The notes under the pieces are model-generated. The model was not told where the DNA came from. It saw only the letters and a program-made list of their open reading frames with translations, and searched no databases. The position numbers were made by a program, and so were the translations under genes. Below are positions 3,040 to 64,000 of a stretch of DNA of 64,000 nt, one piece after another; positions within the stretch are counted from its first letter, which is position 1; the number at the start of each line of letters is the position of its first letter. The stretch lies in assembly GCF_932526225.1 (NCBI RefSeq), contig NC_064047.1, positions 1,753,027 through 1,817,026 of the forward strand. Reading direction: 5' to 3'. This DNA comes from Nematostella vectensis. Taxonomy: Eukaryota.

Positions 3040-3900
3040 CTTGTCGTTGCTCGTGTAAGATGCAAGTTAACAGAGAGCTGGCGCGCATCAAACGAGTCGA
3101 GACGAGCATCAAAACGCGTTTACATGAACAACATTACGCACGTGAACGCAAAGTTTATAACACGAACATCAAGGTGCACAAGAACACTAAAAGCCAAACA
3201 CGAACATTAACAACTCAGAAACGGATGTTAACACGCACACAATCATCAAGCTAGTCTGCTATTTAGCATGTTTATGGTTGTGCTCAAGTTAGCACGCACA
3301 CGAATAAGAACTGGCATTTACATGAGCTTCAAAAAACACATTAACACTCACACAAACGCGAGTTAACACGCAAAGGATTTAGCAAGCACAAGAATATTAA
3401 TAAAACACACAAATATCTACACAAAGACGCAAGATAACACTCACACAAACGCGAAGAAACTAGCAAGCAGACATCAACACGTGTCTTCGTGTGCGTGTTA
3501 TTCTCCGTGTTAATTTACGTCCGTGAGTGCGTTAACTCGTGTTCGTGTGCGTTTAATCTCCGTGTTAACTTGTCTTCGTGTGCGTGTTTCCGTGTTAATT
3601 TACGTCCGTGAGTGTGTTAACTCGTGTTCGTGTGCGTTTTAATCTCCGTGTTAACTTGTCTTCGTGTGCTTGTTATTCTCCGTGTTATTTTACGTCCGTG
3701 AGTGCTTTAACTCGTGTTCATGTTCGTTTTAATCTCCGTGATAACTTGTGTTCGTGTGCGTGCTAACTTGTCTTTGTGTGCGTGTTAATCTTCGTGTTAA
3801 CTTACGTCCGCTAGCGTGCTAACTCGTGTTCGTGTGCGCGTTATCTCGCGTTCGTGTGCGCGTTTAATCGCGTTTGTGTGATATTGTTACCTGTTCGTGC
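3040..3900. repeat. Palindromic satellite: about 118-bp gtgttaac/cgtgtgcg-rich units x about 3.5 (3481-3900), abutting an inverted, more degenerate copy of related sequence (3040-3480)
   Basis: cacgaacacgagttaac.. motifs upstream are reverse complements of gttaactcgtgttcgtg.. motifs downstream. The symmetry centre is about 3480. Confidence 0.7.
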
Positions 3901-9100: not shown

Positions 9101-11699
9101 ATACTTACTTGCCATCATCAAAAAAATCCTCCGTCTTAAATGTGAATCTTCTGTTACGGTAATCGATGTGTTCTAATTTGTAAATCCATTATTGACGCGA
9201 AATACACGTCACGATACGCAAGAGCAAGCGCGCACAAATTCTAGAACACTATCAACGTTAGGGGGGGGGGGGGGGGGGTATTTCCTTACAAGATCGTATG
9301 TCTCGCCGAGTAGCGTGTTGAGTGCTGAAAAACGCAAGACTAGTTTCAGTACCGCGCGGTTAAACCAGCCTTTTTGTTTTGAAATAGTGGCGCTTACCTG
9401 CGAACTGTCACGTTTTGGCGATTTTAATGCTGTACAGTTAGTCAAAACAGCGACCGAAGTCAGCCTTTCACTCGAACGATTCAACACTGAGATTTTGTTT
9501 GTTTTCGCCAGAACAAGCGCATGCGCATACGTTATTCGGCACTGTCCTGCTTCTACGCATAGAATTTTGCTTTTCGAGGATGTGCGCAGAGCGCATCTCT
9601 CCATAGCGGGACGTCGATATACACCTATAATAAATAAGGTTGCACTTGAGAACCCATGTGTCGTAACCCGCGTTGGTTCATGGGTAGCGTATAAACGGGT
9701 GATCCTTGTATCTGAAAGCTCTTCATAACACTCATAATCATATGTAAGTTTGAAATAGGCTAAAACAATGCAACCGGTGAGGCAAGGCGATGATTTTTGT
9801 GATGGTTATGCAAGAATCGCGCCATAGATAGCGAGAGCATTGTTAGCTTCACTCGTACCCAGTTCTCCAGGGCAACGAGAGAAGGGAACGGCCCACCTGC
9901 CTAGGCCTATCGCTCGGGTCGTACCGCTAGCCTCTCAGCTTGGCTTAGGCCGCTGACCAATTATTCTTTTCATGCCTTATTTGAACTGAGTATGATAAGG
10001 AGTGTTATCAAATAGAATACAATGGGCACTAAGGTGCAGGATTGCGGATTATCAAAATATCATGATTGTTTATCATTCATTTGATAATTGATAATTTGAT
10101 ATTTCAATGATTTTTTGGTGATAATAGTATGATATTGTCTTGAAAAAATTGTAAGTGAAATATCAATGTGAAATATCAAAATGTCTTTATCAATTGGATT
10201 ATGGTAGTTGACCCCCAAAAAAGGAATCTCAAATCTATTATCACTATCATTAATAAGAGAAGCAGGTAGATTGAAAAATCTAAATATCACTCTCAATAAA
10301 TAGAAATTAGCAGGATACAGTGATATTCCAAAATAGCAAGTTATCATGGTATCAATATCATTTTATTATTATTATTATTATTATTATCAATGTTGAACAA
10401 AATAACACAAACAGTAAGCGAATGATATATCATGATAATATCTTTTTTTTTTTATTATCTTGACCAACAACACACTAAGATTGATAGCATGATATATCAT
10501 GATAATATGATTTTTGTTTGTTTATCTTAACCAATGGCACCTTAAGAGTGTTAAATTGGAAAACGTATCATTTTTCTTTCGGCGATTTCCGTGTGCTTTG
10601 GATAATAAAAAAAGCTTCGTTTTGTGGTGCGTATTAGTTTACGCGAGGACAAAACGGAGAAAGAAAGGCGCGTTTTGAAATTCATCCTGGTAGTGTTTTT
10701 TTTAACTTTACTGTTCACATCATTCTTCGTCTTCTTATTTCTTTTTCAAGATCTCTGTTGAAGTTGTTGTTGACAAACCAAAATAAAATGCTACGCTTGT
10801 ATTGGGTCATTTTTCTAGTGACCTCAAAGTAATTGTTCAGACGACGACGAAAGACCTGTTCGCAGGTCTCAGTGTCTCAGGTCTCAGTGTTGACACCTCG
10901 AATCTTTGAAAATTAAGGGAAAGTTGGGTGGAATTTACACTTGGGGTTGTCTGGGGGCATACACACACTTTCTTTGTGGTCCGAAACATGGAAAATATCG
11001 ACCAAAAACTTCACTTGTTGGAGCAGGAGTTTCGCACCTGCACTCCCATTCTTTGCCTTATTTCGGAGGTACGGTACTAAGCCACAGGCCCTGTCATATC
11101 CCAGGTATTTCAAATGGGTGATATCACTGACATCCCTGAAAAAGGTGCGTAAAATGAAAAGAAAAACCTGTGTAAATGATTCACAAGTATACATTTCCGT
11201 CAAATCCACTAAAATACCGCGAGGACGAATAAGCGCAAGCATACCAGCAGTGGATTCGAAAAAAAGCGTCTTGCGTTTTTGCGTGTACATCCCACTAATG
11301 GATCAGCCACTTCTTCAGGTAGTAGCCCCACTTCGCATTTATCAAAGGTAAATTCTGGTGGTACTGGTAATTCTTCCACCTCTTGACTCTTACTGATATG
11401 CGCAGCACAAAACTTAAAAGGCATTTGATTTTTACCACTCGGGAGGATAGGATTGGTGCAACTTTGGAAAACAGGTGGAAGGTCTTTAAGCAATTTTACT
11501 TTGATTGACGGTAAAGCACATTTAGATCTTTTGAGGTATTCGTTGCGCCATCAATGGTAACATAGCCCACAGAGCAACCAGGGGTCTTGCATCTATGTTG
11601 CTGTACCCACTTATTCTAGTTCAGAATTGTATAATAGTAATATCAAATCTTATTTTGGAATGTTTTCATATATAATATTAGCTTCGTTCTACTTATGTT

Positions 11700-12070
11700 T
11701 GACACTCAAATAAGAAAAAAATGTAACTATCATTAAATATTCTGATAATATCATGATATATCACTATATTATGGGCCTTAGAAGAAATTGTACCTCATTA
11801 AATATTCTGATAACATCATGATATATCACTATGTCATGGGCTTAGAAGAAATTGTACCTCATTAAATATTTTGATAATATCATGATATATCACTATATCA
11901 TGGGCCTTAGAAGAAATTGTGCCTCATTAAATATTCTGATAACATCATGATATATCACTATGTCATGGGCTTAGAAGAAATTGTACCTCATTAAATATTC
12001 TGATAATATCATGATATATCACTATATCATGGGCCTTAGAAGAAATTGTGCCTCATTAAATATTCTGATA
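11700..12070. repeat. About 62-bp AT-rich tandem repeat x about 6 (..cattaaatattctgataatatcatgatatatcactat..)
   Basis: Direct inspection. Confidence 0.9.
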
Positions 12071-12841
12071 ATATCATGATACACAAATGCTTATATGATA
12101 AAAACCCTTTGAAGAATATCAAAATATCAACCCCTATCAGACTCTTGATAAATCATGATATTTAGGGCCTTAAATACAAGAAACATGTAAGAATTATCAT
12201 GATATATCACATTTAATGATTAGTCTTGATAATAGTGATATACACAATCTTGATCCCTCTCTCGCAATGTGAATGTTTATAAAAATGTAAACAAGCATTC
12301 TACAGCCTTTGAAACCTGAAATTTTTTTAACGCTTTTTTTCCTTATTTACTTGATACCCATGTAGCACTGCGGGCTACAAAACACAGATTCTCCGAGTGC
12401 AACCTTATTTGAAATAGGTTTTATCAGGATGTTTTCCTGGTTGTATATATATTTTTGTTATCCTGTTTGTTATCCTTCCGATACACACCCCAACTTTGAG
12501 AATATGATAAATAAAATTCTTTTGTAACGTATCTAGCAGTCCAAAACTAAGTGTGTTTTTTCCCTTGGGTAAGCAAAAAAAAAAAAAAAAGAAAAGAAAT
12601 TAATGAATATAAACCCGCTATGAAATAAAATACTATTTTTTTTTAGCTACCCTTATTCGTGGGTATCCTGTGGACAAGACACTGTTTCCTAACCGGACTT
12701 CCTGTGGTGACTGTGAATTCTAAAAATAGACATCTTCACAGGAAGCGAAACCTAGATCTGCGGAGTAAAGCAAACTGGCTTCTCTCTAGCAGTCTCAAAC
12801 ACTGGTTTTGTTCACATGTTCCTATCTTAAAGGGCATAACG

Positions 12842-12979
12842 ATGTCTGTTATCTTCTCTGGTCTCCTATTTGTACTGGATTCCTCCGGATTGCCTGGTTT
12901 CTCATTCAAACAGAAGCAAGAACTTCGCTCGAAGATCACTTCAAATGGCGGAACAATATCCTACATTTTGACCAAGAAG
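12842..12979 (+). CDS. PARP4: PARP4-like exon 1, carrying the start ATG and the BRCT-region N-terminus
   Basis: First in-frame ATG. MSVIFSGLLFVLDSSGLPGFSFKQKQELRSKITSNGGTISYILTKK resembles the PARP4 N-terminus (..KKKLQTDIKENGGKFSFSLNPQ). Donor aag|gttaga is weak. Confidence 0.7.
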
Positions 12980-13585
12980 GTTAGAATATCGCGCCCGAAT
13001 CCACAATTCTCCTTTCCTGTTGACTACGCAGTTTGCAAATAACTCTTTTATGCAGTTTCTTCTCTTTTTCTTTCATATATATTAATTTATTCGAGACATT
13101 AAAAACAAAAAGAAAGTGTTATTTTGAAACAGTTTCTTAAACTTTTCAGTTTGTTGTTGTTGCTGAATATTTAAAGTCAAAATTGGGAAGTAAAGAATTT
13201 AAGCCAATGGTTCTGCAATGGATATAGACAACCTATAAAATATATAAATAATCCTAACAAAAGTTACATGGTGGGTGGGTGGGTGGGGGGAATGGCTAAC
13301 GGGTATAGGGGTGATTTGTCCTTTGCGTATACTAAACTATACACACATGCATTTCCTTTTCCTTTTCCAACACTTGCTGGGGATGGGGTCCAGTGCGGGC
13401 ATCCAGGCTGGCTAGTGCATCTCATCATATAAGAGTTTTAATAAGAAGTGCATCCGAGCCGAAATCCACAAATTTCCCTTCTTCCATGTTTCCAAAAACT
13501 CCTAAGTCCACCATTCTCTCCTTATTCTCACATTTCCACATACCCAATCTATTTAAACCTAAAAAAAAATATCTGCCTTGTCTAG

Positions 13586-17877: not shown

Positions 17878-17986
17878 CTCAAATGATATCATAGTGTTAA
17901 ATGTATTCTCGCTGCACCGCCCCGTGGAGGACATCAATTACAGGCATGGCCTCGGCAGACAAAAGCTACTATTCCATGCTTCTAGG
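17878..17986 (+). CDS. PARP4: PARP4-like exon 10, the start of the PARP catalytic fold (His of the H-Y-E triad)
   Basis: ..GRQKLLFHASR resembles ..NVRPLLHGSP. Donor agg|gtaagt. The 3' end of this exon plus its donor is the seed of the downstream 61-bp minisatellite. Confidence 0.85.
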
Positions 17987-20420
17987 GTAAGTCATTCTAT
18001 AAAGACATTACCTCGGCAGACAAAAGCTACTATTCCATGCTTCTAGGGTAAGTCATTCTATAAAGACATAACCTCGGCAGACAAAAGCTACTATTCCATG
18101 CTTTTAGGGTAAGTCATTCTAAAGACATTACCTCGGCAGACAAAAGCTACCATTCCATGCTTCTAGGGTAAGTCATTCTATAAAGACATTACCTCACCGG
18201 ACAAAAACTACTATTTCATGCTTTTAGGGTAAGTCATTCTATAAGACATTACCTCGGCAGACAAAAACTACTATTCCATGCTTCTAGGGTAAGTAATTCT
18301 ATAAAGACATTACCTCGGCAGACAAAAACTACTATTCCATGCTTCTAGGGTAAGTCATTCTATAAAGACATTACCTCACCGGACAAAGGCTACTATTCCA
18401 TGCTTTTAGGGTAAGTAATTCTATAAAGACATTACCTCGGCAGACAAAAGCTATTATTCCATGCTTCTAGGGTAAGTCATTCTATAAAGACATTACCTCG
18501 GCAGACAAAAACTACTATTCCATGCTTCTAGGGTAAGTCATTCTATAAAGACATTACCTCACCGGACAAAAACTACTATTTCATGCTTTTAGGGTAAGTC
18601 ATTCTATAAAGACATTACCTCACCGGACAAAGGCTACTATTCCATGCTTCTAGGGTAAGTCATTCTATAAAGACATTACCTCACCGGACAAAGGCTACTA
18701 TTCCATGCTTCTAGGGTAAGTCATTCTATAAAGACATTACCTCGGCAGACAAAAGCTACTATTCCATGCTTCTAGGGTAAGTCATTCTATAAAGACATTA
18801 CCTCGGCAGACAAAGGCTACTATTCCATGCTTCTAGGGTAAGTCATTCTATAAAGACATTACCTCGGCAGACAAAAGCTACTATTCCATGCTTTTAGGGT
18901 AAGTCATTCTATAAAGACATTACCTCACCGGACAAAGGCTACTATTCCATGCTTCTAGGGTAAGTCATTCTATAAAGACATTACCTCGGCAGACAAAAAC
19001 TACCATTCCATGCTTCTAGGGTAAGTCATTCTATAAAGACATTACCTCGGCAGACAAAAGCTACCATTCCATGCTTCTAGGGTAAGTCATTCTATAAAGA
19101 CATTACCTCAGCAGACAAAAGCTATTATTCCATGCTTCTAGGGTAAGTCATTCTATAAAGACATTACCTCGGCAGACAAAGGCTACTATTCCATGCTTCT
19201 AGGGTAAGTCATTCTATAAAGACATTACCTCGGCAGACAAAAGCTACCATTCCATGCTTCTAGGGTAAGTCATTCTATAAAGACATTACCTCGGCAGACA
19301 AAGGCTACTATTCCATGCTTCTAGGGTAAGTCATTCTATAAAGACATTACCTCGGCAGACAAAAGCTACTATTCCATGCTTTTAGGGTAAGTCATTCTAT
19401 AAAGACATTACCTCACCGGACAAAGGCTACTATTCCATGCTTCTAGGGTAAGTCATTCTATAAAGACATTACCTCGGCAGACAAAAACTACCATTCCATG
19501 CTTCTAGGGTAAGTCATTCTATAAAGACATTACCTCGGCAGACAAAAGCTACCATTCCATGCTTCTAGGGTAAGTCATTCTATAAAGACATTACCTCGGC
19601 AGACAAAAGCTATTATTCCATGCTTCTAGGGTAAGTCATTCTATAAAGACATTACCTCGGCAGACAAAAACTACTATTCCATGCTTCTAGGGTAAGTCAT
19701 TCTATAAAGACATTACCTCACCGGACAAAGGCTACTATTCCATGCTTCTAGGGTAAGTCATTCTATAAAGACATTACCTTTGCAGACAAAGGCTACTATT
19801 CCATGCTTCTAGGGTAAGTCATTCTATAAAGGCATTACCTCGGCAGACAAAGGCTACTATTCCATGCTTCTAGGGTAAGTCATTCTATAAAGACATTACC
19901 TCGGCAGACAAAAGCTACTATTCCATGCTTTTAGGGTAAGTCATTCTATAAAGACATTACCTCACCGGACAACGCTACTATTCCATGCTTTTAGGGTAAG
20001 TCATTCTATAAAGACATTACCTCGGCAGACAAAAGCTACTATTCCATGCTTCTAGGGTAAGTCATTCTATAAAGACATTACCTCACCGGACAAAAACTAC
20101 TATTTCTTGTTTTTGGGGTAAGTCATTCTATAAAGACATTACCTCGGCAGACAAAAACTACTATTCCATGCTTCTAGGGTAAGTCATTCTATAAAGACAT
20201 TACCTCGGCAGAAAAAAAAAACTACTATTCCATGCTTCTAGGGTAAGTCATTCTATAAAGACATTACCTCGGCAGACAAAAGCTACTATTTCATGCTTCT
20301 AGGGTAAGTCATTCGATAAATATATAACCTAGGCGGACAAAAGCTACTATTCCATTCGTTTTAGGGTAAATCATTCTATAAAGACATTGCCTATAGGCGG
20401 ACAAAATCTACTATTCCATT
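17950..20420. repeat. Minisatellite of about 61 bp x about 40 copies, derived from the exon 10 3' end plus its splice donor
   Basis: Unit cctcggcagacaaaagctactattccatgcttctagg|gtaagtcattctataaagacattac is identical to the last 37 nt of exon 10 plus 24 nt of intron. Every copy carries an agg|gtaagt donor. Confidence 0.95.
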
Positions 20421-20619
20421 CTTGTAGGGCAATTTATTTTTTACAAACATGGTTACAAACTAGGTTTTCTTCGCCTCTAAGGGTAAGGGGTTTTTTGTTC
20501 TTTTTCCGGCTTGAAATAAAAGAAAGACAATGATATCGTGAGGACTTTTGATGAAAGTATAGTCGACAAAGAGACAATAAGCTATTAAGTCTAACTATTT
20601 CTGTTTTGTTGTATCGCAG

Positions 20620-20648
20620 GTCAGGAATTTTGTTGGAATACTCTCGAG
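20620..20648 (+). CDS. PARP4: PARP4-like exon 11 (29-bp micro-exon)
   Basis: VRNFVGILS resembles VQNIVGILCRG. Bounded by cgcag| and |gtaaat. It restores the phase between exons 10 and 12. Confidence 0.75.
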
Positions 20649-21337
20649 GTAAATCCATTTAATATATGTTCCACTTAATCTCCTCCACAGGAATCTCGAG
20701 TGTTTTTTTGGACTTTTCCGTACTTTTATGAATTCGGGTTCCTGTGGTACTATTCATGTAAGATATTGGACTGAGGGCTAGTTGAACCGGAACCAGGCCC
20801 CCGCTCTTTCTTGATCACGCCACACGAAGCCCAAAATCGATAAAAGCCTGAGTCCCTGTCAGCCGCAATTTGTCATCTTCACGAAATACGAAGAACGAGA
20901 AACGGTCCACTTCTGACTGCTCTTCTGTTATATTTTCGATTTGAGTTTGTAAAAAAAGTATAAAATTATGTTTGTGAGTGACTACTATAAGATTTCCTCA
21001 TCATCATCTGTTTTCCAATAGGGAATAAACACGATAACAAAGGTATGGCTAACCGCGCTGTGTCAAAGCCAAGGAAAACTAATAAAATCTGATACTAGAT
21101 TATAATTTGATGTACTGGCAACGGAGAGAATATTTCGATGCAATGAAGCTAAATAGAAAAAAAAATTAATTAAACGTTTGTGAGAATTAGTAAAAACGAT
21201 AAATTGAAAATTGCACATACTGGGTTCCAGGGTTCATCTGGTCCATCTGGAAAATTCCTTCCTATTCCTTCGAATTGTCTGCTCTCTTTCCGTGTGCATG
21301 TCTCGTATGTAAAACTAAAAGTGTAGCATTCTTTCAG

Positions 21338-22589: not shown

Positions 22590-23150
22590 CTACTACACAG
22601 TAGGTCACGGTAGACTATGTCACGACATGATATGTCACGGTAGGATATAGGTTATGTTACATTATGGTGTAGGGATCAAGGCGACCAAACCATCAGCCTT
22701 CAAGGTGACGCCTTACTAGTAGGTCACGGTAGAATATGACACGTAACAAACGGCGGGTTAAAGGTATCAAAGCGACCAAACCATCAGCCTTCAAGGTGAC
22801 GCCTTATTAGTAGGTCACGGTAGAATATGACACGTAACAAACGGCGGGTTAAAGGTATCAAAGCGACCGAACCATCAGACTTCAATTTGATGCCTTACTA
22901 CATACTAGGTCACGCTAGAACATATGTCACGACACAATATGTCACGGTACAACATATGTAACGACACGATATGTCACGGTAGTACATATGTAACGACACG
23001 ATATGTCACGGTATAACTTATGTAACGACACGATATGTCACGGTAGAACATATGTAACGACACGATATGTCACGGTAGAACATATGTAACGACACGATAT
23101 GTCACGGTAGAACATATGTAACGACACGATATGTCACGGTGAGGTCATAG
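22590..23150. repeat. Compound tandem repeats in PARP4-like intron 14: about 95-bp units that re-copy the exon 14 end and its donor (..caaggcgaccaaaccatcagccttcaag|gtgacgcc), and a 33-bp unit (gtaacgacacgatatgtcacggtagaacatat) x 6
   Basis: Direct inspection. The first unit overlaps exon 14's last 30 nt. Confidence 0.85.
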
Positions 23151-23488: not shown

Positions 23489-23935
<447 letters not shown>

Positions 23936-25926: not shown

Positions 25927-26132
25927 GACGTGTTCACCGTGAACGTAGGTAACCTACCCCCAGCTGCAAGCGTGCTCATTAAGATCACCTATGTTGCCGA
26001 ACTCACCGTGGAGGGAGAACTCATCTGCTTTCGGTTACCAGGAAGCGTGGCGCCATGGCAGCGCACGCAAGCGCATGATGACGTCACTCAAACAGATGTG
26101 GATACTATTTGTGTTGATGAGGAGAATCAAAG
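25927..26132 (+). CDS. PARP4: PARP4-like exon 19 (VIT)
   Basis: DVFTVNVGNLPPAASVLIKITYVAEL.. resembles DVFTVSVGNLPPKAKVLIKITYITEL... Donor aag|gttaag. It is followed by the 4.65-kb satellite intron. Confidence 0.9.
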
Positions 26133-26139
26133 GTTAAGT

Positions 26140-29100
26140 TTCTATATATATCCTATTTACATGTACATCAATTGCGCCCCTTTCACATGTACATCCTGTA
26201 TACCCCTTTTACATGTACATCCTGTATACCCCTTACACATGCACATCCTGTATACCCCTTACACATGTACATCCTGTGTACCCCTTACACATATACATCC
26301 TGTATACCCCTTACACATGTACATTCTGTGTACCCCTTACACATGTACATACTGTGTACCCCTTACACATGTACATCCTGTGTACCCCTTACACATATAC
26401 ATCCTGTATACCCCTTACACATTTACATTCTGTGCACCCCTTACACATATACATTCTGTATACCCCTTTCACGGGTACATCCTGTGTACCCCTTACACAT
26501 GTACATCATGTGTACCCCTTACACATGTACATCCTGTGTACCCCTTACACATGTGCCTCATGTGTACCCCTTTCACATGTACATCCTGTATACCCCTTAC
26601 ACATGTACATCCTGTGTACCCCTTTCACATATACATCATGTATACCACTTTCACGGGTACATCCTGTGTACCCCTTTCACATGTACATTCTGTATACCCC
26701 TTTCACGGGTACATCCTGTGTACCCCTTACACATGTCCCTCATGTGTACCCCTTTCACATGTACATCATGTGTATTCCTTACACATGTGCATCCTGTGTA
26801 CCCCTTTCACATGTACATCCTGTATACCCCTTACACATGTACATCCTGTGTACCACTTTCACATATACATCATGTATACCACTTTCACGGGTACATCCTG
26901 TGTACCCCTTTCACATGTACATCCTGTATACCCCTTTCACGGGTACATCCTGTGTACCCCTTACACATGTCCCTCATGTGTACCCCTTTCACATGTACAT
27001 CATGTGTATTCCTTACACATGTGCATCCTGTGTACCCCTCTCACATGTACATCATGTGTACCCCTTACACATGTACATCATGTGTACCCCTTACACATGT
27101 ACATCCTGTGTACCCCTTTCACATGTACATCCTGTGTACCCCTCTCACATGTACATCCGGTGTACCCCTTACACATGTACATCCTGTGTACCACTTACAC
27201 ATGTACATCATGTGTACCCCTTACACATGTACATCCTGTGTACCACTTTCACATGTACATCATGTGTACCCCTTACACATGTACATCATGTGTACCCCTT
27301 TCACATGTACATGCTGTCTACCCCTTACACATGTACATCCTGTCTACCCCTCTCACATGTACATCATGTGTATTCCTTACACATGTACATCCTGTGTACC
27401 GCTTTCACATGTACATCCTGTGTACCCCTTACACATGTACATCATGTGTACCCCTTACACCTGTACATCCTGTGTACCCCTTACACATGTACATCCTGTG
27501 TACCCCTTACACATGTACATCCTGTGTACCCCTTTCACATGTACATCCTGTGTACCCCTTACACATGTACATCCTGTGTACCCCTTTAACATGTACATCA
27601 TGTGTACCCCTTTAACATGTACATCTTGTGTACCCCTTACACATGGATATCATGTGTACCCCTTTCACATGTACATCCTGTGTACCCCTTACACATGTAC
27701 ATCATGTGTTCCCTTCACATGTACATCCTGTGTACCCCTTACACATGTACATCATGTGTACCCCATCACATGTACATCCTGTGTTCTCCTTACACATGGA
27801 CGTCATGTGTACCCTTTCACATGTACATCCTGTGTTCTCCTTACACATGGACGTCATGTATACCCTTTCACATGTACAACCGGTGTTCCTGTTACACATG
27901 TGCATCCTGTGTACCCCTTTCACATGTTCATCCCGTGTACCCCCTTACACATGTACATACTGTGTATCCCTTACACATGTACATCCTGTGTACCACTTTC
28001 ACATGTACATCATGTGTACCCCTTACACATGTACATCATGTGTACCCCTTTCACATGTACATGCTGTCTACCCCTTACACATGTACATCCTGTCTACCCC
28101 TCTCACATGTACATCATGTGTACCCCTTACACATGTACATCCTGTGTACCGCTTTCACATGTACATCCTGTGTTCCCCTTACACATGTACATCATGTGTA
28201 CCCCTTACACATGTACATCCTGTATACCCCTTTTACATGTACATCCTGTGTACCACTTACACATGTACATCATGTGTACCCCATCACATGTACATCCTGT
28301 GTACCCCTTACACATATACATCCTGTATACCCCTTACACATGTACATTCTGTGTACCCCTTACACATGTACATACTGTGTACCCCTTACACATGTACATC
28401 CTGTATACCCCTTACACATGTACATTCTGTGTACCCCTTACACATATACATCCTGTATACCCCTTACACATTTACATTCTGTGCACCCCTTACACATATA
28501 CATTCTGTATACCCCTTTCACGGGTACATCCTGTGTACCCCTTACACATGTACATCATGTGTACCCCTTACACATGTACATCCTGTGTACCCCTTACACA
28601 TGTGCCTCATGTGTACCCCTTTCACATGTACATCCTGTATACCCCTTACACATGTACATCCTGTGTACCCCTTTCACATATACATCATGTATACCACTTT
28701 CACGGGTACATCCTGTGTACCCCTTTCACATGTACATTCTGTATACCCCTTTCACGGGTACATCCTGTGTACCCCTTACACATGTCCCTCATGTGTACCC
28801 CTTTCACATGTACATCATGTGTATTCCTTACACATGTGCATCCTGTGTACCCCTTTCACATGTACATCCTGTATACCCCTTACACATGTACATCCTGTGT
28901 ACCACTTTCACATATACATCATGTATACCACTTTCACGGGTACATCCTGTGTACCCCTTTCACATGTACATCCTGTATACCCCTTTCACGGGTACATCCT
29001 GTGTACCCCTTACACATGTCCCTCATGTGTACCCCTTTCACATGTACATCATGTGTATTCCTTACACATGTGCATCCTGTGTACCCCTCTCACATGTACA

Positions 29101-30800
29101 TCATGTGTACCCCTTACACATGTACATCATGTGTACCCCTTACACATGTACATCCTGTGTACCCCTTTCACATGTACATCCTGTGTACCCCTCTCACATG
29201 TACATCCGGTGTACCCCTTACACATGTACATCCTGTGTACCACTTACACATGTACATCATGTGTACCCCCTACACATGTACATCCTGTGTACCACTTTCA
29301 CATGTACATCATGTGTACCCCTTACACATGTACATCATGTGTACCCCTTTCACATGTACATGCTGTCTACCCCTTACACATGTACATCCTGTCTACCCCT
29401 CTCACATGTACATCATGTGTATTCCTTACACATGTACATCCTGTGTACCGCTTTCACATGTACATCCTGTGTACCCCTTACACATGTACATCATGTGTAC
29501 CCCTTACACCTGTACATCCTGTGTACCCCTTACACATGTACATCCTGTGTACCCCTTACACATGTACATCCTGTGTACCCCTTTCACATGTACATCCTGT
29601 GTACCCCTTACACATGTACATCCTGTGTACCCCTTTAACATGTACATCATGTGTACCCCTTTAACATGTACATCCTGTGTACCCCTTACACATGGATATC
29701 ATGTGTACCCCTTTCACATGTACATCCTGTGTACCCCTTACACATGTACATCATGTGTTCCCTTCACATGTACATCCTGTGTACCCCTTACACATGTACA
29801 TCATGTGTACCCCATCACATGTACATCCTGTGTTCTCCTTACACATGGACGTCATGTGTACCCTTTCACATGTACATCCTGTGTTCTCCTTACACATGGA
29901 CGTCATGTATACCCTTTCACATGTACAACCGGTGTTCCTGTTACACATGTGCATCCTGTGTACCCCTTTCACATGTTCATCCCGTGTACCCCCTTACACA
30001 TGTACATACTGTGTATCCCTTACACATGTACATCCTGTGTACCACTTTCACATGTACATCATGTGTACCCCTTACACATGTACATCATGTGTACCCCTTT
30101 CACATGTACATGCTGTCTACCCCTTACACATGTACATCCTGTCTACCCCTCTCACATGTACATCATGTGTACCCCTTACACATGTACATCCTGTGTACCG
30201 CTTTCACATGTACATCCTGTGTTCCCCTTACACATGTACATCATGTGTACCCCTTACACATGTACATCCTGTGTACCCCTTACACATGTACATCCTGTGT
30301 ACCCCTTACACATGTACATCCTGTGTACCCCTTTCACATGTACATCCTGTGTACCCCTTACACATGTACATCCTGTGTACCCCTTTAACATGTACATCAT
30401 GTGTACCCCTTTAACATGTACATCCTGTGTACCCCTTACACATGGATATCATGTGTACCCCTTTCACATGTACATCCTGTGTACCCCTTACACATGTACA
30501 TCATGTGTTCCCTTCACATGTACATCCTTTGTACCCCTTACACATGTACATCATGTGTACCCCATCACATGTACATCCTGTGTTCTCCTTACACATGGAC
30601 GTCATGTATACCCTTTCACATGTACATCCTGTGTTCTCCTTACACATGGACGTCATGTATACCCTTTCACATGTACAACCGGTGTTCCTGTTACACATGT
30701 GCATCCTGTGTACCCCTTTCACATGTTCATCCCGTGTACCCCCTTACACATGTACATACTGTGTATCCCTTACAAAATGTAAATCCGATGTACCCCCATC
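26140..30800. repeat. 26-bp satellite (consensus ccccttacacatgtacatcctgtgta), about 178 copies, organised in a 2049-bp higher-order repeat, inside PARP4-like intron 19
   Basis: Identical ORF segments recur at offsets of 2049 bp (27702/29751; 27602/29651), and a third copy of the 27702/29751 segment begins 750 bp after the second (29751/30501). The 26-bp unit has variants ..tttcac.., ..catgtg.. and ..cgggtac... Confidence 0.95.
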
Positions 30801-30853
30801 CTGTAAAATGAATGTATGAATGATTGAATGTATGAATGATTGTTTCTTTGTAG

Positions 30854-30935
30854 CAACACCTCAGTTCAGGTCTCTGTTGAAATGCCATTTGAGATCCGTG
30901 CTATTCTTTGCCCTGGACACGATGTCAAGGTCAAG
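30854..30935 (+). CDS. PARP4: PARP4-like exon 20
   Basis: SNTSVQVSVEMPFEIRAIL..KVK resembles ..SFSLTMSIEMPYVIEFI... Confidence 0.8.
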
Positions 30936-36858: not shown

Positions 36859-37657
36859 GTATGCCGAATATGGTGTGTGTGTGTGTGTGTGGGGGGGGGG
36901 GGGGGGTGGGACGGTTGTTCTATGTTCCCCATTGACAGTCCAAATATATACTGTAGAAGCCTTAACCGCAAAGGATATTCTCAAATTGCAGTCGCCCTGG
37001 CTTGAGTCGTCCTTAACCTTTTTAGAAAATAGGCGTCGTGGGGGCCTGATTAAGTTCGGGTTGTTGCGGATGCCGGAGATCAAAATTGTACGTTTAGGGT
37101 AATAGGTACAAACCAGAACCCTCGGTTGACTTTACGATTAGAGGAAGATAGGGTTGTGGGGTGATTAAGTGGGTCTATCAGCTGCCATTCTGTCATCCTA
37201 GAAGAAAATCAAATGTAAGAAAGCAAAATGTTTCATGGTTGGTTTGGAAAAATATTGTGATGTTTTCCATCAAATTTAGTAAAAGAAGTGTAACACTTCG
37301 TTCATTATTTTGTTGCCAATATTAAGCCCTTGTCAGCCACACCTTTGTTATTGGTTTCTCCTAATATGGGAAGTAATCATGAAAAGGAATCTCAAAATAA
37401 TCAGCCAAATATAAAATCTTATTGTTTATTTACTGCACTTAATGGAAAATATTGCAAGAGCTTCCCCAATGTAACCGATGGAAATGGATGCTCTCTTGCG
37501 CTTGGTAATTTGCTAGAATGACAGAACGGCGGCTGACAGATGCTCCTCAATGGAACAGGTGTGTCTGTTTATGGCTCTGAACAAGCTGAACAACGACGTG
37601 ACGTTGCAAGGATCGAACCTGTCCCTTAGTTTTTGCGATTCAATTTTCTTTTCTCAG

Positions 37658-37792
37658 GATGAAAAGTTTGACGCTAGTCTGGGGCCGAGTATCGATGAAC
37701 TGGTGTCACATGAGGACGTTGACGTCATTCCATACGTCAGCTGGGAGGAGCCTGAGTCACGTGATGTGGGCAAACCTGAATCATCATCCAAG
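37658..37792 (+). CDS. PARP4: PARP4-like exon 32
   Basis: ..ELVSHEDVDVIPYVSWEEPE.. resembles ..ELIAKEDVDFLPYMSWQGEPQ... Confidence 0.85.
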
Positions 37793-39959: not shown

Positions 39960-41707
39960 GTAAATGAACACTTTTCCTTTATTTCTGTTAGGGGTCGAAC
40001 ACTATGAATGAACACTTTTCCTTTATTTCTGTTAGGGATCGAACACTATGAATGAACACTTTTCCTTTATTTCTGTTAGGGATCGAACACTATGAATGAA
40101 CACTTTTCCTTTATTTCTATTAGGGATCGAACACTATGAATGAACACTTTTCCTTTATTTCTGTTAGGGATCGAACACTATGAATGAACACTTTTCCTTT
40201 ATTTCTGTTAGGAATCGAACACTATGAATGAACACTTTTCCTTTATTTCTGTTAGGAATCGCACACTATGAATGAACACTTTTCCTTTATTTCTGTTAGG
40301 GATCGAACATTATGAATGAACACTTTTCCTTTATTTCTGTTAGGGATCGCACACTATGAATGAACACTTTTCCTTTATTTCTATTAGGGATCGAACACTA
40401 TGAATGAACGCTTTTCCTTTATTTCTGTTAGGGATCGAACACTATGAATGAACACTTTTCCTTTATTTCTGTTAGGAATCGCACACTATGAATGAACACT
40501 TTTCCTTTATTTCTGTTAGGAATCGCACACTATGAATGAACACTTTTCCTTTATTTCTGTTAGGGATCGAACATTATGAATGAACACTTTTCCTTTATTT
40601 CTGTTAGGGATCGAACACTATGAATGAACACTTTTCCTTTATTTCTGTTAGGGATCGAACACTATGAATGAACACTTCTCCTTTATTTCTATTAGGGATC
40701 GAACACTATGAATGAACACTTTTCCTTTATTTCTGTTAGAGATCGCACACTATGAATGAACACTTTTCCTTTATTTCTATTAGGGATCGAACACTATGAA
40801 TGAACACTTTTCCTTTATTTCTGTTAGGAATCGCACACTATGAATGAACACTTTTCCTTTATTTCTGTTAGGAATCGCACACTATGAATGAACACTTTTC
40901 CTTTATTTCTGTTAGGGATCGAACATTATGAATGAACACTTTTCCTTTATTTCTGTTAGGGATCGAACACTATGAATGAACACTTTTTCTTTATTTCTGT
41001 TAGGGATCGAACACTATGAATGAACACTTCTCCTTTATTTCTATTAGGGATCGAACACTATGAATGAACACTTTTCCTTTATTTCTGTTAGGGATCGAAC
41101 CCTATGAATGAACACTTTTCCTTTATTTCTGTTAGGGATCGAACACTATGAATGAACACTTTTCCTTTATTTCTGTTAGGGATCGAACACTATAAATGAA
41201 CACTTTTCCTTTATTTCTGTTAGGGATCGCACACTATGAATGAGCACTTTTCCTTTATTTCTGTTAGGGATCGAACACTATGAATGAACACTTTTCCTTT
41301 ATTTCTATTAGGGATCGAACACTATGAATGAACACTTTTCCTTTATTTCTGTTAGGAATCGCACACTATGAATGAACACTTTTCCTTTATTTCTATTAGG
41401 GATCGAACACTATGAATGAACACTTTTCCTTTATTTCTGTTAGGAATCGCACACTATGAATGAACACTTTTCCTTTATTTCTGTTAGGGATCGAACACTA
41501 TGAATGAACACTTTTCCTTTATTTCTGTTAGGGATCGCACACTATGAATGAACACTTTTCCTTTATTTCTGTTAGGGATCGAACACTATGAATGAACACT
41601 TTTCCTTTATTTCTGTTAGGGATCGAACACTATGAATGAACACTTTTCCTTTATTTCTGTTAGGGATCGAACACTATGAATGAACACTTTTCCTTTATTT
41701 CTGTTAG
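39960..41707. repeat. Minisatellite of about 44 bp x about 40 copies, derived from the exon 35 acceptor (polypyrimidine tract, AG, and the first exon bases)
   Basis: Unit tgaatgaacacttttcctttatttctgttag|ggatcgaacacta. The true junction reads ..tttctgttag|gtatcgaacacgatg. Confidence 0.9.
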
Positions 41708-41798
41708 GTATCGAACACGATGTCTCCTCGCGATCCAACTTTGACGATCTGCTTGAGCATTTGCGACAGGACAGTTCGTATAGCGACGAAGTGGGGAG
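41708..41798 (+). CDS. PARP4: PARP4-like exon 35. Its acceptor and first about 12 bp seed the upstream 44-bp minisatellite.
   Basis: Bounded by ctgttag| and ag|gtaggg. Only one frame is open (IEHDVSSRSNFDDLLEHLRQDSSYSDEVG), and it is the phase-compatible one. Confidence 0.5.
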
Positions 41799-47870: not shown

Positions 47871-49312
47871 CCCCTCTTACGGATATACTCAGTGCTAATA
47901 CCGGACTCCTCCCATTCGCAGTCGCCAACATACCGTCACCCAAACCGCGGCCACCTAGGGCCTCTAAGATAGCCGCACCACCGGCTCCATCCCTACAAGC
48001 TGTCTGTATCGACCTCCCGGAACCTCCCCTGAAGGCTGGGGACTCACCGTTGAAAAGATCTGTAAAAGCACCACTACCACCTCCTCCACCTCAACAAGCT
48101 TCCCGGATCGACTACCGGGCTTCATATGGAGCCGCACCACCGGCTCCATCCCTACAAGCTGTCTGTATCGACCTCCCGGAACCTCCCCTGAAGGCTGGGG
48201 ACTCACCGTTGAAAAGATCTGTAAAAAAACCACTACCACCTCCTCCACCTCAACAAGCTGCCCGGATCGACTACCGGGCTTCATATGGCGCTCCACCTCT
48301 TCCTCCGAAGAGAGGTGGAGGCCCACCTCTTCCTCCGAAGAGAGTCGCCAACATACCGTCACCCAAACCGCGGCCACCTAGGGCCTCTAAGATAGCCGCA
48401 CCACTGGCTCCATCCCTACAAGCTGTCTGTATCGACCTCCCGGAACCTCCCCTGAAGGCTGGGGACTCACCGTTGAAAAGATCTGTAAAAGCACCACTAC
48501 CACCTCCTCCACCTCAACAAGCTTCCCGGATCGACTACCGGGCTTCATATGGAGCCGCACCACCGGCTCCATCCCTACAAGCTGTCTGTATCGACCTCCC
48601 GGAACCTCCCCTGAAGGCTGGGGACTCACCGTTGAAAAGATCTGTAAAAAAACCACTACCACCTCCTCCACCTCAACAAGCTGCCCGGATCAACTACCGG
48701 GCTTCATATGGCGCTCCACCTCTTCCTCCGAAGAGAGGTGGAGGCCCACCTCTTCCTCCGAAGAGAGGTGGAGGCCCACCTCTCTTCGGTGCCATGGCTT
48801 TGAGGACAGGTGCCCCCTCAAAGGCATCGAAACCAAGTTTTGGTGGAAGAGGTCAACCACAGGTGTTCGCAACATCTGCTAGTGAAATCCTTCACCCGAG
48901 GCTAGCCCGAACTCCATCTGAACTCGCGCCCAAAGGAGTCCCATCACAGACTAATGATGAAGCTCCAGTTTTTATGTCCCGACTACAACTGTTGGAAAGT
49001 ATTCGCGCGAAGAAAAAGACCAAGGAGACCGACAGAGAAGATATTATGAAACAGGATGACTCAGGTGAGGCCGATATTTTACGCAGAGAAGCCCACCAAC
49101 ATAGCATGGAAACAGAGCTAGAAGCTGATAGGAATGAGGCTGAAATGGGTGTTCGTCCGGTACCACGAAAGCGTGGTAAGAGGATGCTGGAAAAGAAGGC
49201 GGCGGAGCAGAAAAAGGAGGCGATGGAAGAGCCCTCGGAATCGTTGCAGAACAGAATGCGGAAATGGATGACCGCTGACAAGTTGTTGGAGCTGTTTGCG
49301 TCTCAGCATAAC
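47871..49312 (+). CDS. PARP4: PARP4-like exon 40: Pro-rich, with an internal 423-bp in-frame tandem duplication and a WH2-like stretch
   Basis: Acceptor cccccag| (alternative at 47921, same phase). Open frame of 480 codons. The 141-aa unit VANIPSPKPRPP..PPLPPKRGGGPPLPPKR occurs twice (47921-48343 and 48344-48766). Donor aac|gtaagt. The PARP4 tail is likewise Pro-rich. Confidence 0.65.
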
Positions 49313-49820
49313 GTAAGTAAGAGAAATGAAGGAGACGGCGGGGGTTTTAAAGCACGCATAGATCAGTGTTGTTTTATAGGGACCTTAAGCAAGAACGACG
49401 ACGGTGGCAAGGACAACGAGATCTAAAAAGATGTGTTAGCGCTTGGTGATCAATTCCAATTTAATTGCAATGCAATAAGCAAAACATGCGATAAAAAGAT
49501 AATAAAAATAAACTAAGACATTATTTTTACTGTAGCGAACGTAGTCAGAGGAGTTGACAGTGCAAATGTGCGCGTCCCCAATTTACCGTGAAAGTTGGAG
49601 TTTTCACGACATGGTTTGGTCTAAAACTAATGTAAAACTAATGCATCAGACAGAACGCATTTTCACAAGCTGCTATTTAATTCTGTATCCAATTCCATTG
49701 TTTTCTGCCTTCGTCAATTATTACTAGAAATGAAAAATAGATTATGCAGTATCAACTTGCCAGTGGCTTTAACCCACCAAAAAAAATATTCGACTTAGTG
49801 ACTTTGTGATCTGCTTGCAG

Positions 49821-49917
49821 GATGGCTATTGGAGTGAGAAAGAACTGGAGGTCGCCTTTAGGATAGACTGCTCGTTCTTGTCAAGGCTTCTTGTGAATGC
49901 TGGTGCACAAAGTCTAG
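49821..49917 (+). CDS. PARP4: PARP4-like exon 41 (C-terminal MVP-binding-like)
   Basis: ..LLELFASQHN|DGYWSEKELEVAF..AGAQSLG resembles PARP4 ..WTELLSLQTEDGFWKLTPELGLIL..KGIQSLGV. Confidence 0.8.
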
Positions 49918-50045
49918 GTGAGAGGGGCACGCATGATAAAAACACGGAAAAACATGAAAAAAACATCAACGATGAATATGATGATGATGATGGTCGTGCT
50001 GCTGCTGTTGATGATGATGATTGCGATTGCGATGATGATGATGGT

Positions 50046-50240
50046 GGTGGTGACGTGATGGTGATGGTGGTGGTGATGATGATGGTGATGGTGATGGTGA
50101 TGGTGATGGTGATGGTGATGGTGATGGTGATGGTGATGGTGATGGTGATGGTGATGGTGATGGTGATGGTGATGGTGATGGTGATGGTGATGGTGATGGT
50201 GATGGTGATGGTGATGGTGATGGTGATGGTGATGGTGGTG
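50046..50240. repeat. (GTGATG)n hexamer microsatellite, flanked by (GATGAT)/(GACGAC) tracts, in the intron after exon 41
   Basis: Direct inspection. Because the period is a multiple of three, it produces artefactual poly-VM / poly-IT ORFs on both strands. Confidence 0.95.
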
Positions 50241-50576
50241 GTGGCGGCGGCGGCGAGGACGACGACGACGACGACGAAAGCGAAGATGACGACGATGATG
50301 ACGATGATGATGATGATAATCATAATTTTACGGTGATGGCAGTGACTAGGGCTCTAATATATAAGAATATATTAGAGCCCTAGGTATCACCTCACCCTCC
50401 AGAATACACAGTAAAATGTAGATATATTCTAAGACTATCTATGACAATGCCAATTACATATAGTGTAAGTGTGTCAGCTTTGCTTGGGTCGAAAATGTCG
50501 ACGGCCGGCGATGCTTTGTATCATTAGGATTAAGTTAAACCCCTACAAACCCTTCAACCAAACTTTCGCCTTACAG

Positions 50577-58695: not shown

Positions 58696-59796
58696 TTGCC
58701 ATATTCTGATGTTCATGCTAGGCTAATCGTAGACGGAGAGCTAACTCGTGCATTTGAATACAACTGTGGTGTCAAGCAAGGATGTAAGTTAGCACCAACT
58801 CTATTCGGCATCTATGCTGCTGTCCTGCTCTGGTTGGCCTTTAATAAAATTGAACACACCTGCAGCATCAAGATAAGATTCCGATTTGATGGTAATCTCT
58901 TCGATCTTCGCAGGCTCAAAGCAAAAACAAAAGTCCTTACGGAATTCATCAGAGAGGCACAGTACGCTGACGATATCGCCTTATTTAGCGATACCCCAGA
59001 GGGTCTGCAGTCTTTACTTACATCGTACAATGAACTTGCTAAGAGAATGGGGATGCGCATTAACACTAAAACGACGGAGACTATGTGTATTGGTAATACT
59101 GCCGACTTTTATGTTGATGGCATTAAGCTGGTCAATGTTACTCACTTTAAATACCTTGGTAGTATCCTGTCAAGTGACTGCTCAATGAGAGCGGAGCTCA
59201 CATCTCGTATACAAGCTGTATCATGTGCTTACGGTCGCCTTCGAAAGAGAGTTTTCGACTCACGTGATCTCACCGTACCAACCAAGATCGCTGTTTATAA
59301 TCAATGTCTAATGCCTCTCTTATTGTACGGTAGTGAGACATGGACTGTATATCAGCATGAAGTTAGAGAACTTCGTACTCTGCAACAACGCCATTTACGC
59401 CTAATCCTCAAGATCAAGTGGGATGACTATATAAGCAATGAAGACGTCCTCCGTCGTGCAAACGTAGATGATATTGAAACAAAATTAGCTAGAAATCGTC
59501 TCCGCTGGCTTGGTCACCTCTGCCGAATGGACGATGACAGAGTGCCTAAGCAGCTGTTATTTTCGGAGCTAGAACACGGGTCTCGCCCAGTTGGTCGTCC
59601 TAAACTAAGATTCAAGGACATTTTGAAAAAAGACCTCAAAATTGGATGCGTCCTTGAAGCGTGGAACTATCATGTACATAATAGAAAGGAATGGAGGGCG
59701 ATCACAAATAACATCTGCACGTCATACGACAAAAGAAGATATGAAACCTATTTAAAACAAAGGGAAGCTCGCCGTAAAAGGGCGGAGAACAGTTAA
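58696..59796 (+). CDS. LINE ORF2 fragment (C-terminal half of the reverse transcriptase, plus C-terminal region)
   Basis: GVKQGCKLAPTLFGIY (RT motif), YADDIALF (catalytic YxDD box), ..RLRWLGHLCRM..GRPKLRFKDIL.. C-terminal motif typical of RTE/CR1/L2-type LINEs. 366 codons without a stop. Confidence 0.85.
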   Translation: MPYSDVHARLIVDGELTRAFEYNCGVKQGCKLAPTLFGIYAAVLLWLAFNKIEHTCSIKIRFRFDGNLFDLRRLKAKTKVLTEFIREAQYADDIALFSDTPEGLQSLLTSYNELAKRMGMRINTKTTETMCIGNTADFYVDGIKLVNVTHFKYLGSILSSDCSMRAELTSRIQAVSCAYGRLRKRVFDSRDLTVPTKIAVYNQCLMPLLLYGSETWTVYQHEVRELRTLQQRHLRLILKIKWDDYISNEDVLRRANVDDIETKLARNRLRWLGHLCRMDDDRVPKQLLFSELEHGSRPVGRPKLRFKDILKKDLKIGCVLEAWNYHVHNRKEWRAITNNICTSYDKRRYETYLKQREARRKRAENS

Positions 59797-63639: not shown

Positions 63640-64000
63640 GGGTACAGTACAAGAAACACAAGGAAGAGATAGAGAAGAACCAACACCGCCCACACCACAT
63701 TCCTATAGTGCAGAAGACAAATGAGGAAGACAAGGAAGAGATAGAGAAGAACCAACACCGCCCACACCACATTCCTATAGTGGAGAAGACAAATGAGGAA
63801 GACAAGGAAGAGATAGAGAAGAACCAACACCGCCCACACCACATTCCTATAGTGGAGAAGACAAATGAGGAAGACAAGGAAGAGATAGAGAAGAACCAAC
63901 ACCGCCCACACCACATTCCTATAGTGGAGAAGACAAATGAGGAAGACAAGGAAGAGATAGAGAAGAACCAACACCGCCCACACCACATTCCTATAGTGCA
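63640..64000. repeat. 72-bp tandem array (at least 5 copies, running to the window end) that copies part of DGCR6-like exon 3 in frame (EEIEKNQHRPHHIPIVEKTNEEDK)n
   Basis: The array unit equals bp about 63232-63303 of exon 3. The period is 72, a multiple of three. The array is separated from the exon by a MITE insertion. Confidence 0.9.

Follow-up and report, generated by a model that had tools for sequence, protein, structure and literature searches.

A PARP4-like gene of Nematostella vectensis contains an intron occupied almost entirely by tandem copies of a 26-bp unit, and the array repeats itself with a longer period of 2049 bp. This raises the question of whether a centromere-type satellite with higher-order structure has come to lie within a gene, whether the array serves a function there, or whether it is a more ordinary minisatellite. 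Our analysis of a 64-kb window (the whole stretch of DNA analysed) indicates that this is, in all probability, a locus-specific intronic minisatellite that arose in place and grew by successively larger internal duplications. "Locus-specific" describes what appears to hold across the 64-kb window and the metagenome and viral collections searched.

The array-bearing intron

The array and its immediate surroundings comprise the following features:

25927..26132, + strand: exon A, PARP4-like gene (P0010, P0005 and P0001 match in tblastn)
26133..30853, + strand: intron of 4721 bp, phase 2, GT..AG (reading frame continuous from exon A into exon B)
26159..30796, + strand: 26-bp tandem array, 178.8 units, 4638 bp, consensus CCCCTTACACATGTACATCCTGTGTA (TRF)
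30797..30853, + strand: 3' non-array intron remnant, consisting of (TGAATGTATGAATGAT)x2.1 and a polypyrimidine tract with the 3' splice site ttgtttctttgtag/
30854..30935, + strand: exon B (SNTSVQVSVEMPFEIRAILCPGHDVKVK)

The best database matches to the host protein are 53-61% identical and include the bivalve Solemya velum, the sole match that carries a species name. Exon A codes for the last part of the VIT domain and for linker sequence (...DVFTVNVGNLPP...VDEENQ), and is directly followed by the 5' splice site AAG/GTTAAGT. An earlier note on this DNA had placed the array inside the VIT-domain intron; the intronic location is correct, but the Pfam VIT model stops at residue 22 of exon A, ~46 codons upstream of the intron, which sits in the VIT-VWA linker. 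Non-array sequence amounts to just 83 bp (26 bp at the 5' end of the intron, 57 bp at the 3' end), leaving the array 98% of the intron, and its two flanks are the neighbouring exons, collinear with orthologues. The relative L003 has a ~50-bp intron without the repeat at the equivalent position, comparable to the 83-bp remnant here, while L001 and L002 have no intron at this position. The 26-bp repeat is absent from all relatives compared, in which the intron is missing, ~50 bp long or differently placed. We also considered the array as the creator of the intron (intron gain), which is unsupported given the repeat-free intron of L003.

TRF recovers a single array of period 26 with 85% matches, bearing out the ~178 units first described. 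Within the window, 153 copies fall within three mismatches of CCCCTTACACATGTACATCCTGTGTA (≤3 mismatches; expectation in shuffled sequence, 0), all of them on the + strand and all within the array. The 150 in-register units comprise 40 distinct variants with a mean pairwise identity of 88.5%. Degenerate units stand at either end, where the array fades gradually into the intron. The palindromic cores reported previously are present as 144 occurrences of ACATGT and 130 of TGTACA, which combine as the 8-bp palindrome ATGTACAT 125 times. Together with TACACA...TGTGTA, this palindrome makes the unit self-complementary, and predicted hairpin potential exceeds that of shuffled sequences for both single-stranded DNA (fold z = -7.5) and RNA (z = -5.5).

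These properties are those of minisatellites (VNTRs), whose units of ~10-100 bp are arranged head-to-tail over ~0.5-30 kb with mixed variants at a single euchromatic locus with unique flanks: the period is 26 bp, the 4638 bp of array run entirely on the + strand with 40 variants among 150 units, and the sole copy in the 64-kb window lies between adjacent exons.

Nested tandem duplications within the array

Self-identity across all possible shifts peaks at 2049, a distance that 26 does not divide evenly; it corresponds to 79 units, six of them 25 bp and one 27 bp long. We also looked for dimers and other short higher-order periods in the array and found none, identity dropping steadily as the shift increases (26 > 52 > 78 ~ 104). 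The internal structure instead resolves into three tandem duplications:

26305..28223, + strand: copy 1 of a 2-kb tandem duplication, 99.69% identical to copy 2 over 1919 bp at shift 2049
28354..30272, + strand: copy 2 of the 2-kb tandem duplication, shifted by 2049 from copy 1
28224..28353, + strand: junction between the 2-kb copies
29271..30774, + strand: two tandem 750-bp (29-unit) repeats, 29271-30024 and 30021-30774, 99.2% identical
26561..27053, + strand: older 234-bp (9-unit) tandem duplication, 98.8% identical

The 2-kb copies differ at 6 of 1919 positions (~0.1-0.3% divergence) and, in the core at 26378-28223, at just 2 of 1846, both T/C. The left end of copy 1 (26262-26396) matches 28285-28419 at a shift of 2023, and the copies thus differ by one unit. 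The first part of the junction (28224-28284, 61 bp) has no high-identity duplicate, and the remainder (28285-28353) aligns with the start of copy 1 at the same 2023 shift. The 2049-bp register is confined to 26305-30272; the array tail (30273-30774) lies outside it and duplicates the preceding 750 bp, belonging to the second 750-bp repeat. In copy 1 this second repeat is truncated (27218-27460 = 27968-28210). The 2049-bp period noticed earlier is therefore real, but the count of two full higher-order repeats plus a partial one is not, as the period spans ~1.94 copies and the tail follows the 750-bp register.

Both smaller duplications are found inside each 2-kb copy, the 234-bp duplication recurring at 28610-29102 through the 2-kb event, and they are therefore older than it. 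Divergence is graded across the three, from ~1.2% for the 234-bp duplication (3 mismatches in 259) through ~0.8-1.2% for the 750-bp duplication (6/754 and 3/243) to the value given above for the 2049-bp one. Recent unequal crossing-over had been proposed for this array, and three nested tandem duplications with graded divergence do support unequal exchange or slippage.

The 79 units form an integral multimer of diverged monomers, with multimer copies 99.7% identical as against 88.5% for single units, as in higher-order repeat satellites. Such satellites, however, carry their higher-order period at least three times across an array, compared with 1.94 copies here, and form large, abundant centromeric or pericentromeric arrays, whereas this copy is intronic and has no match in the searched collections. 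The 2049-bp "higher-order repeat" is a single tandem duplication, the most recent of the three, and not an established, homogenised higher-order repeat.

It is possible that this near-perfect duplication could be an assembly artefact, with the 2-kb segment or the whole array length reflecting false duplication or collapse from repetitive reads, or even two concatenated allelic versions. Arrays exceeding read length are commonly mis-sized, and the near-identity of the copies in the core would fit such an error; however, the window contains no Ns or gaps, an indel of one unit distinguishes the copies, 61 bp of non-duplicated sequence lie between them, the correct adjacent exons stand on both flanks, and the older nested duplications with their graded divergence show that the locus truly evolves in this way. 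We consider an artefact unlikely.

We infer that the minisatellite originated where it now lies, in an intron of the PARP4-like gene that was once short, and would have grown via replication slippage or unequal exchange. The duplicated block would have been 234 bp (9 units) at first, 750 bp (29 units) next and 2049 bp (79 units) last, the final event taking the array to roughly twice its length, from ~2.6 kb to 4.6 kb. Hairpins of the self-complementary single strands plausibly favoured misalignment. The locus offers a resolved example of a minisatellite swelling a short intron ~50-fold through nested tandem duplications.

Coding, transposon and satellite-family origins

A long open reading frame crosses the array:

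26172..30782, + strand: artefactual 1536-aa ORF (ORF scan)

A frame open over 4.6 kb might point to a protein-coding repeat. Its openness follows from the consensus unit, which has no purine-purine dinucleotides and consequently no stop codons. Coding repeats have a period that is a multiple of three, are exonic and have homologues; the 26-bp period is not such a multiple, the gene is conserved and the intron around the ORF canonical, 400 aa of translated array returned no match among 5.8 billion proteins, and a Pfam search of the ORF identified no family. A real coding repeat is effectively refuted, in agreement with the earlier dismissal of this ORF as an artefact. For annotation the array calls for caution, both because it yields a spurious ORF of this length and because its own length is assembly-sensitive.

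MITE- and Helitron-type elements are a common source of short arrays in invertebrate genomes, and the window does contain transposable elements, as is evident from a reverse-transcriptase fragment away from the array (58696-59796). The array could accordingly be the internal tandem array of an inserted element of this kind, a MITE or Helitron-type satellite carrier. Against this, non-array sequence in the intron comes to just 26 bp on one side and 57 bp on the other, and the window holds no second copy. Terminal inverted repeats, target-site duplications and conserved termini, as expected of a transposon-borne array, are lacking, the search of the array flanks for the first two yielding only an 8-mer inverted match in the degenerate edge unit. 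Rfam likewise detected no family over the whole 64-kb window. We regard a transposon origin as highly improbable.

The array might instead belong to a satellite family spread through the genome, possibly pericentromeric, with one copy inserted or mis-joined into the intron. Nothing observed points to this directly; the precedent is Tribolium, in which euchromatic intronic copies of heterochromatic satellites are known (PMC5844308). Here, all copies in the window belong to the one array, with none further found. The exact 26-mer had 0 matches in metagenome contigs and 0 in viral contigs, and the 21-mer core matched metagenome contigs just 6 times, always singly and in contigs unrelated to one another, some labelled human-gut metagenome, which we judge to be chance. 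Neither the protein-level search nor a literature search with the unit sequence on both strands uncovered a relative. A mis-join of a pericentromeric satellite in particular is very unlikely given adjacent collinear exons on both sides and gradually degrading edges, and this evidence, taken with the searches above, makes a satellite family as a whole quite unlikely. The array is most probably an ordinary intronic minisatellite, and neither a centromere-type satellite nor a demonstrated functional element.

The surrounding sequence places this minisatellite in context. Tandem arrays make up 19% of the 64-kb window and 32% of the PARP4-like gene span. Another intron of the gene (17987-20620) is 93% filled by a 2.5-kb array of a 61-bp unit that consists of an exon end and 5' splice site, replicated 38 times, indicating that local tandem amplification is recurrent at this locus. 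Given the other kb-scale intronic arrays of the gene and the tandem-repeat share of its span, the intronic setting is not unusual for the N. vectensis genome. The earlier note saw higher-order structure in an intronic array as something out of the ordinary, a view supported neither by these proportions nor by precedents in the literature (PMC11118589, PMC2588610, PMC5844308). The discovery value of this one array is very little. Several introns of the gene each consist nearly entirely of a different, locally derived tandem array, and a genome-wide look may be worthwhile.

An AG-free array and its possible function

The 4638-bp array contains no AG, and AG occurs in the whole intron only at 26137, within the 5' splice site, and at 30852, in the 3' splice site. 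Because the sense strand is AG-free, the array offers no internal 3' splice acceptor, and GT contexts within it are weak only. The minisatellite may therefore be tolerated by being transcribed and then spliced out with the intron; it is probably selectively neutral, neutrality being our assumption.

The absence of AG could alternatively reflect constraint. In a table of possible versus observed substitutions in the units, AG-creating transversions are seen in 1 of 9 cases and other transversions in 17 of 43 (one-sided Fisher p = 0.10), and AG absence is not significant, being statistically inseparable from chance and shared ancestry. AG is also present in other intronic arrays of the gene. The lone AG-creating change, T12G, is always paired with A11G (CACGGGTACA) such that no AG arises, a pairing that would fit splicing constraint.

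More broadly, the array might be a functional cis element modulating host-gene transcription or splicing, whether through length-dependent elongation delay, as a sponge for RNA-binding proteins (C-rich/UG motifs) or as a structure-forming tract (hairpins, GGGG runs). In addition to the AG-free intron and the strong predicted self-structure, this possibility draws on two motifs of the unit, CUUAC (branch-point-like, 95 copies) and CCCC (139 copies), on GGGG runs recurring every 26 nt on the template strand, and on a human intronic VNTR associated with expression differences (PMC11118589, PMC13131567). However, relatives do without the repeat, AG depletion is not significant, and further intronic arrays of the same gene have unrelated units, which suggests a general mutational propensity and no specific function. 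The sequence analyses gave no indication of the regulatory or structural element envisaged at the outset, and we consider a cis element very doubtful. The same holds, with equally little expectation, for a length-tunable array under splicing constraint, in which the AG-free 4.7-kb exclusion zone and the CUUAC and C-rich tract in nearly every unit would be maintained. If true, a single distal AG would be forced, intron removal delayed and C-rich/UG-binding proteins sequestered, and array length would tune the output of the PARP4-like gene.

Comparison with known repeat systems

The ordinary minisatellite favoured here shares features with several known systems. Alpha-satellite higher-order repeats are similar in that diverged monomers (88.5% identical in the present array) lie within near-identical multimer copies (~99.7% here) made of an integral number of monomers (79 here), but the Nematostella array has two copies only, loses the period along its length, totals 4.6 kb and is intronic. 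Human CEB1 and CEB25 are unstable minisatellites that form hairpins or G4 structures. The present array resembles them in sequence, through its GC skew, the G-runs of one strand and an internal self-complementarity that might encourage misalignment, although its GGGG runs are 22 nt apart, beyond the canonical G-quadruplex range.

The TCAST families of Tribolium castaneum are euchromatic satellite repeats enriched in introns (PMC5844308) and, like the array described here, reside as tandem repeats in introns, in their case of expressed genes. They differ in being dispersed, abundant genome-wide and mostly single repeats or short arrays, whereas the Nematostella array is apparently locus-specific where checked. 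A human 61-bp VNTR at Xp22.33 has irregular 1.6- and 2.5-kb higher-order repeats (PMC2588610). VNTRs of this type share the minisatellite-sized unit and a kb-scale higher-order period, seen in their case on dot plots, but exceed 10 kb with several higher-order copies, compared with ~1.94 copies of a 2049-bp block here.

A further parallel is the human 30-bp VNTR in intron 3 of CACNA1C (TRACT), which spans 3-30+ kb with many unit variants, has grown by internal tandem duplications that were small at first and later of kb size, and for which population data and expression associations exist (PMC11118589, PMC13131567). It bears no relation to the Nematostella array in unit sequence, host gene or phylum, but both are intronic, kb-scale arrays of a ~30-bp-class unit with many variants and a history of nested growth.

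The 26-bp array and its host intron

Tandem Repeats Finder reported one array at this site, with the consensus ACATGTACATCCTGTGTACCCCTTAC, a rotation of the unit originally described:

26159-30796, + strand: 26-bp array, period 26, 178.8 copies, 85% matches

The array of about 178 units described in the earlier note is therefore real. A search of the 64-kb window for CCCCTTACACATGTACATCCTGTGTA with up to three mismatches returned 153 sites, all on the + strand and within the array (0 in 100 shuffles), and no second 26-bp array or copy was found elsewhere in the window. In a unit-by-unit parse most units measure 26 bp and a few 25 or 27 bp, and they become progressively more degenerate toward both ends. 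The 150 in-register units comprise 40 distinct variants with a mean pairwise identity of 88.5%, and the + strand is pyrimidine-rich (GC skew approximately -0.4 to -0.5).

The array makes up 98.2% of a 4721-bp intron (26133-30853) between exon A (25927-26132) and exon B (30854-30935), across which the reading frame is continuous (...VDEENQ|SNTSVQVSVEMPF...), with splice boundaries AAG|GTTAAGT at exon A and ...tttgtag| before exon B. On sequence grounds the host gene is PARP4-like, as evidenced by the PARP, VIT and VWA domains of its homologues (one named poly [ADP-ribose] polymerase), by the collinearity of its exons, spanning 12851-37765, with the compact relative L001, and by a Pfam VIT match. 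The best homologue in the collections searched is 61% identical to the host protein, and the bivalve Solemya velum is the only species-named homologue among the protein matches. The VIT model stops at residue 22 of exon A, which places the intron in the linker between VIT and VWA; the intronic setting proposed earlier stands, but not its placement inside the VIT domain.

Intron presence and position vary at this site among PARP4-like orthologues (L001 7983-8477, L003 2157-2214, L005 9817-10014 and L004, the Solemya velum locus, 10009-13252, vs window 26133-30853). Two relatives (L001 and L002) are intronless here. In L005 and Solemya velum an intron sits 13 codons further upstream (~195 bp and ~3.2 kb, respectively), and that of Solemya holds a 30-bp repeat unrelated to the 26-bp unit. 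L003 has a repeat-free intron of ~50 bp at the same position, indicating that the array intron is not unique to the window lineage. Its non-array remainder (83 bp) is similar in size to the L003 intron, which fits in-place expansion of the array.

An ORF of 1536 aa (26172..30782) runs across the array, but a coding role was rejected: the period is no multiple of three, the ORF is intronic, the translated array found no homologous protein in the protein search, and the ORF had no Pfam match. The frame is open because the unit lacks purine-purine dinucleotides (AA 15, AG 0, GA 10 and GG 34 of 4637 in the array). The unit had rightly been called stop-free and the ORF artefactual; across the whole array TAG and TGA are absent and TAA occurs seven times. 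The array matched no Rfam family, and neither terminal inverted repeats nor a target duplication were found at it, giving no sign in its sequence of a transposon origin. The exact 26-mer had zero matches in metagenome contigs and in viral contigs, a 21-mer core had six isolated matches in metagenome contigs, presumed to be chance, and the unit was not found in literature searched by its sequence. Combined with the window search, this array is not evidently a dispersed satellite.

Nested duplications and growth of the array

Self-identity of the array peaks at a shift of 2049, above every other shift. The non-integer ratio to the unit (2049/26 = 78.8) is explained by the unit parse, in which the block holds 79 units (72x26 + 6x25 + 27 = 2049). 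In a windowed scan, identity at this shift is ~100% over ~26300-28280 and then falls to background level.

Internal duplications of the array (diagonal scan)
Shift 2049: 26305-28223 = 28354-30272, 1919 bp, 99.69% identity (the 2-kb copies)
Shift 750: 29271-30024 = 30021-30774, 754 bp, 99.2% identity
Shift 750: 27218-27460 = 27968-28210, 243 bp, 98.8% identity
Shift 234: 26561-26819 = 26795-27053, 259 bp, 98.8% identity
Shift 2023: 26262-26396 = 28285-28419, 135 bp, 99.3% identity (1 mismatch)

The core of the first 2-kb copy (26378-28223) differs from the other copy at just two sites, both T/C, and the match at shift 2023 shows that the copies differ by one unit in length. The 234-bp duplication recurs at 28610-29102. 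Both 2-kb copies contain the 234- and 750-bp duplications, whose divergence is higher, so these predate the 2049-bp one. These relationships indicate that the array grew by internal tandem duplications of successively larger size, the last of which, of 2049 bp, would, if the 2-kb duplication is correctly assembled, have enlarged it from ~2.6 kb to 4.6 kb. Such nested, graded duplications support the recent unequal crossing-over suggested in the earlier note. The 2049-bp period it reported is likewise confirmed; calling this a higher-order repeat overstates ~1.94 copies, and the supposed third partial copy is instead a tail in the 750-bp register.

Folding potential and absence of AG

The palindromic cores noted previously were recovered as an 8-bp palindrome, ATGTACAT, present in 125 copies, and the unit also carries the inverted pair TACACA/TGTGTA. 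Five consecutive units fold more stably than shuffles (z = -7.5 as single-stranded DNA, z = -5.5 as RNA). Predicted self-folding plausibly aids slipped misalignment, in that hairpin-prone single strands may favour misalignment of units.

Sense-strand AG is absent from all 4638 bp of the array, which consequently has no internal acceptor; the only AGs of the intron are at its 5' and 3' splice sites. Selection against AG was assessed by comparing observed with possible substitutions in units (one-sided Fisher). Nine single substitutions would create AG, all transversions, of which one (T12G) is seen, compared with 17/43 other transversions (1/9; p = 0.10, with duplicated units non-independent). 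T12G never occurs without A11G (CACGGGTACA; 10 units, e.g. 26463, 26645, 26697, 26879, 26931 and their copies), hence no AG forms. T12G alone would yield the splice-site-like CAG|GT. AGs do occur in the 61-bp array, which lies in a neighbouring intron. As a signature of selection the absence of AG is suggestive, not significant, and we treat it as a compatibility feature rather than proof of constraint; a satellite-derived regulatory element, as once proposed, is unsupported.

Other tandem repeats and comparison with known systems

The window is 19% tandem repeat, a share that rises to 32% across the gene span (12851-37765); these figures do not support the view that an intronic array is unusual here. 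The remaining long arrays show greater homogeneity, and none has a large duplication as sharp.

17950-20429, + strand: 61-bp array, 40.6 copies, 93% of intron 17987-20620 (exon end 17986, next micro-exon 20621-20649)
22671-23140 and 23499-23932: arrays of 91 bp x 2.5, 32 bp x 7.2 and (CTCTCTGT)x54 (99% identity), presumably intronic, between mapped exons of the PARP4-like gene
39963-41722: 44-bp array x 40, 96% unit identity, homogeneous, no higher-order blocks, 3' of 37634-37765, the last PARP4-like exon mapped
3482-3880: complex GT-rich 90/56/22-bp repeat
11730-12081: 65/129-bp repeat x 5.4, 93-97% identity
47822-49426, + strand: 534-aa ORF, GC-rich (56%), no Pfam match
47920-48783: 423-bp x 2 duplication (99%) built of 159-bp sub-repeats, within the 534-aa ORF
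49978-50317: microsatellites, (ATGGTG)x44 hexamers and GAT-rich trimers, with ORFs 49806-50336 (+) and 49826-50323 (-)
58696-59796, + strand: retrotransposon fragment, an ORF matching the reverse-transcriptase domain RVT_1 (E = 4e-12)
63658-63998: 72-bp x 4.7 repeat, 99% identity, AT skew +0.29, continuing past the window end

The two upstream short arrays (3482-3880 and 11730-12081) add to the minisatellite-rich picture of the region. The microsatellites may represent non-coding sequence or a low-complexity coding tract of the His/Asp/Gly type. For the 72-bp repeat, a period divisible by 3 and a purine-rich composition make a coding role possible.

The 61-bp unit spans an exon-intron junction: the final 37 nt of the upstream PARP-catalytic exon (LGRQKLLFHASR) are joined to the 5' splice site and 24 intronic nt. 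This shows that amplification of local sequence at its own site has recurred in this gene. L001 lacks an intron at this site. The array holds 38 intact AGGGTAAGT copies, and use of a downstream 5' splice site copy would insert 61n nt including an in-frame TAG. The mechanism that selects the first 5' splice site is arguably of greater interest than the 26-bp array.

By unit size, array size and its single genic locus, the 26-bp array qualifies as a VNTR-type minisatellite rather than as classical satellite DNA. The original observation was thus largely correct, with its higher-order description overstated. Human VNTRs include irregular kb-scale higher-order repeats (PMC2588610), and euchromatic satellites of Tribolium are enriched in introns (PMC5844308). 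The array shares identity contrast and an integral monomer number with alpha-satellite-type higher-order repeats, but lacks their multi-copy periodicity and heterochromatic setting; its closest documented analogue is the 30-bp VNTR in intron 3 of CACNA1C.
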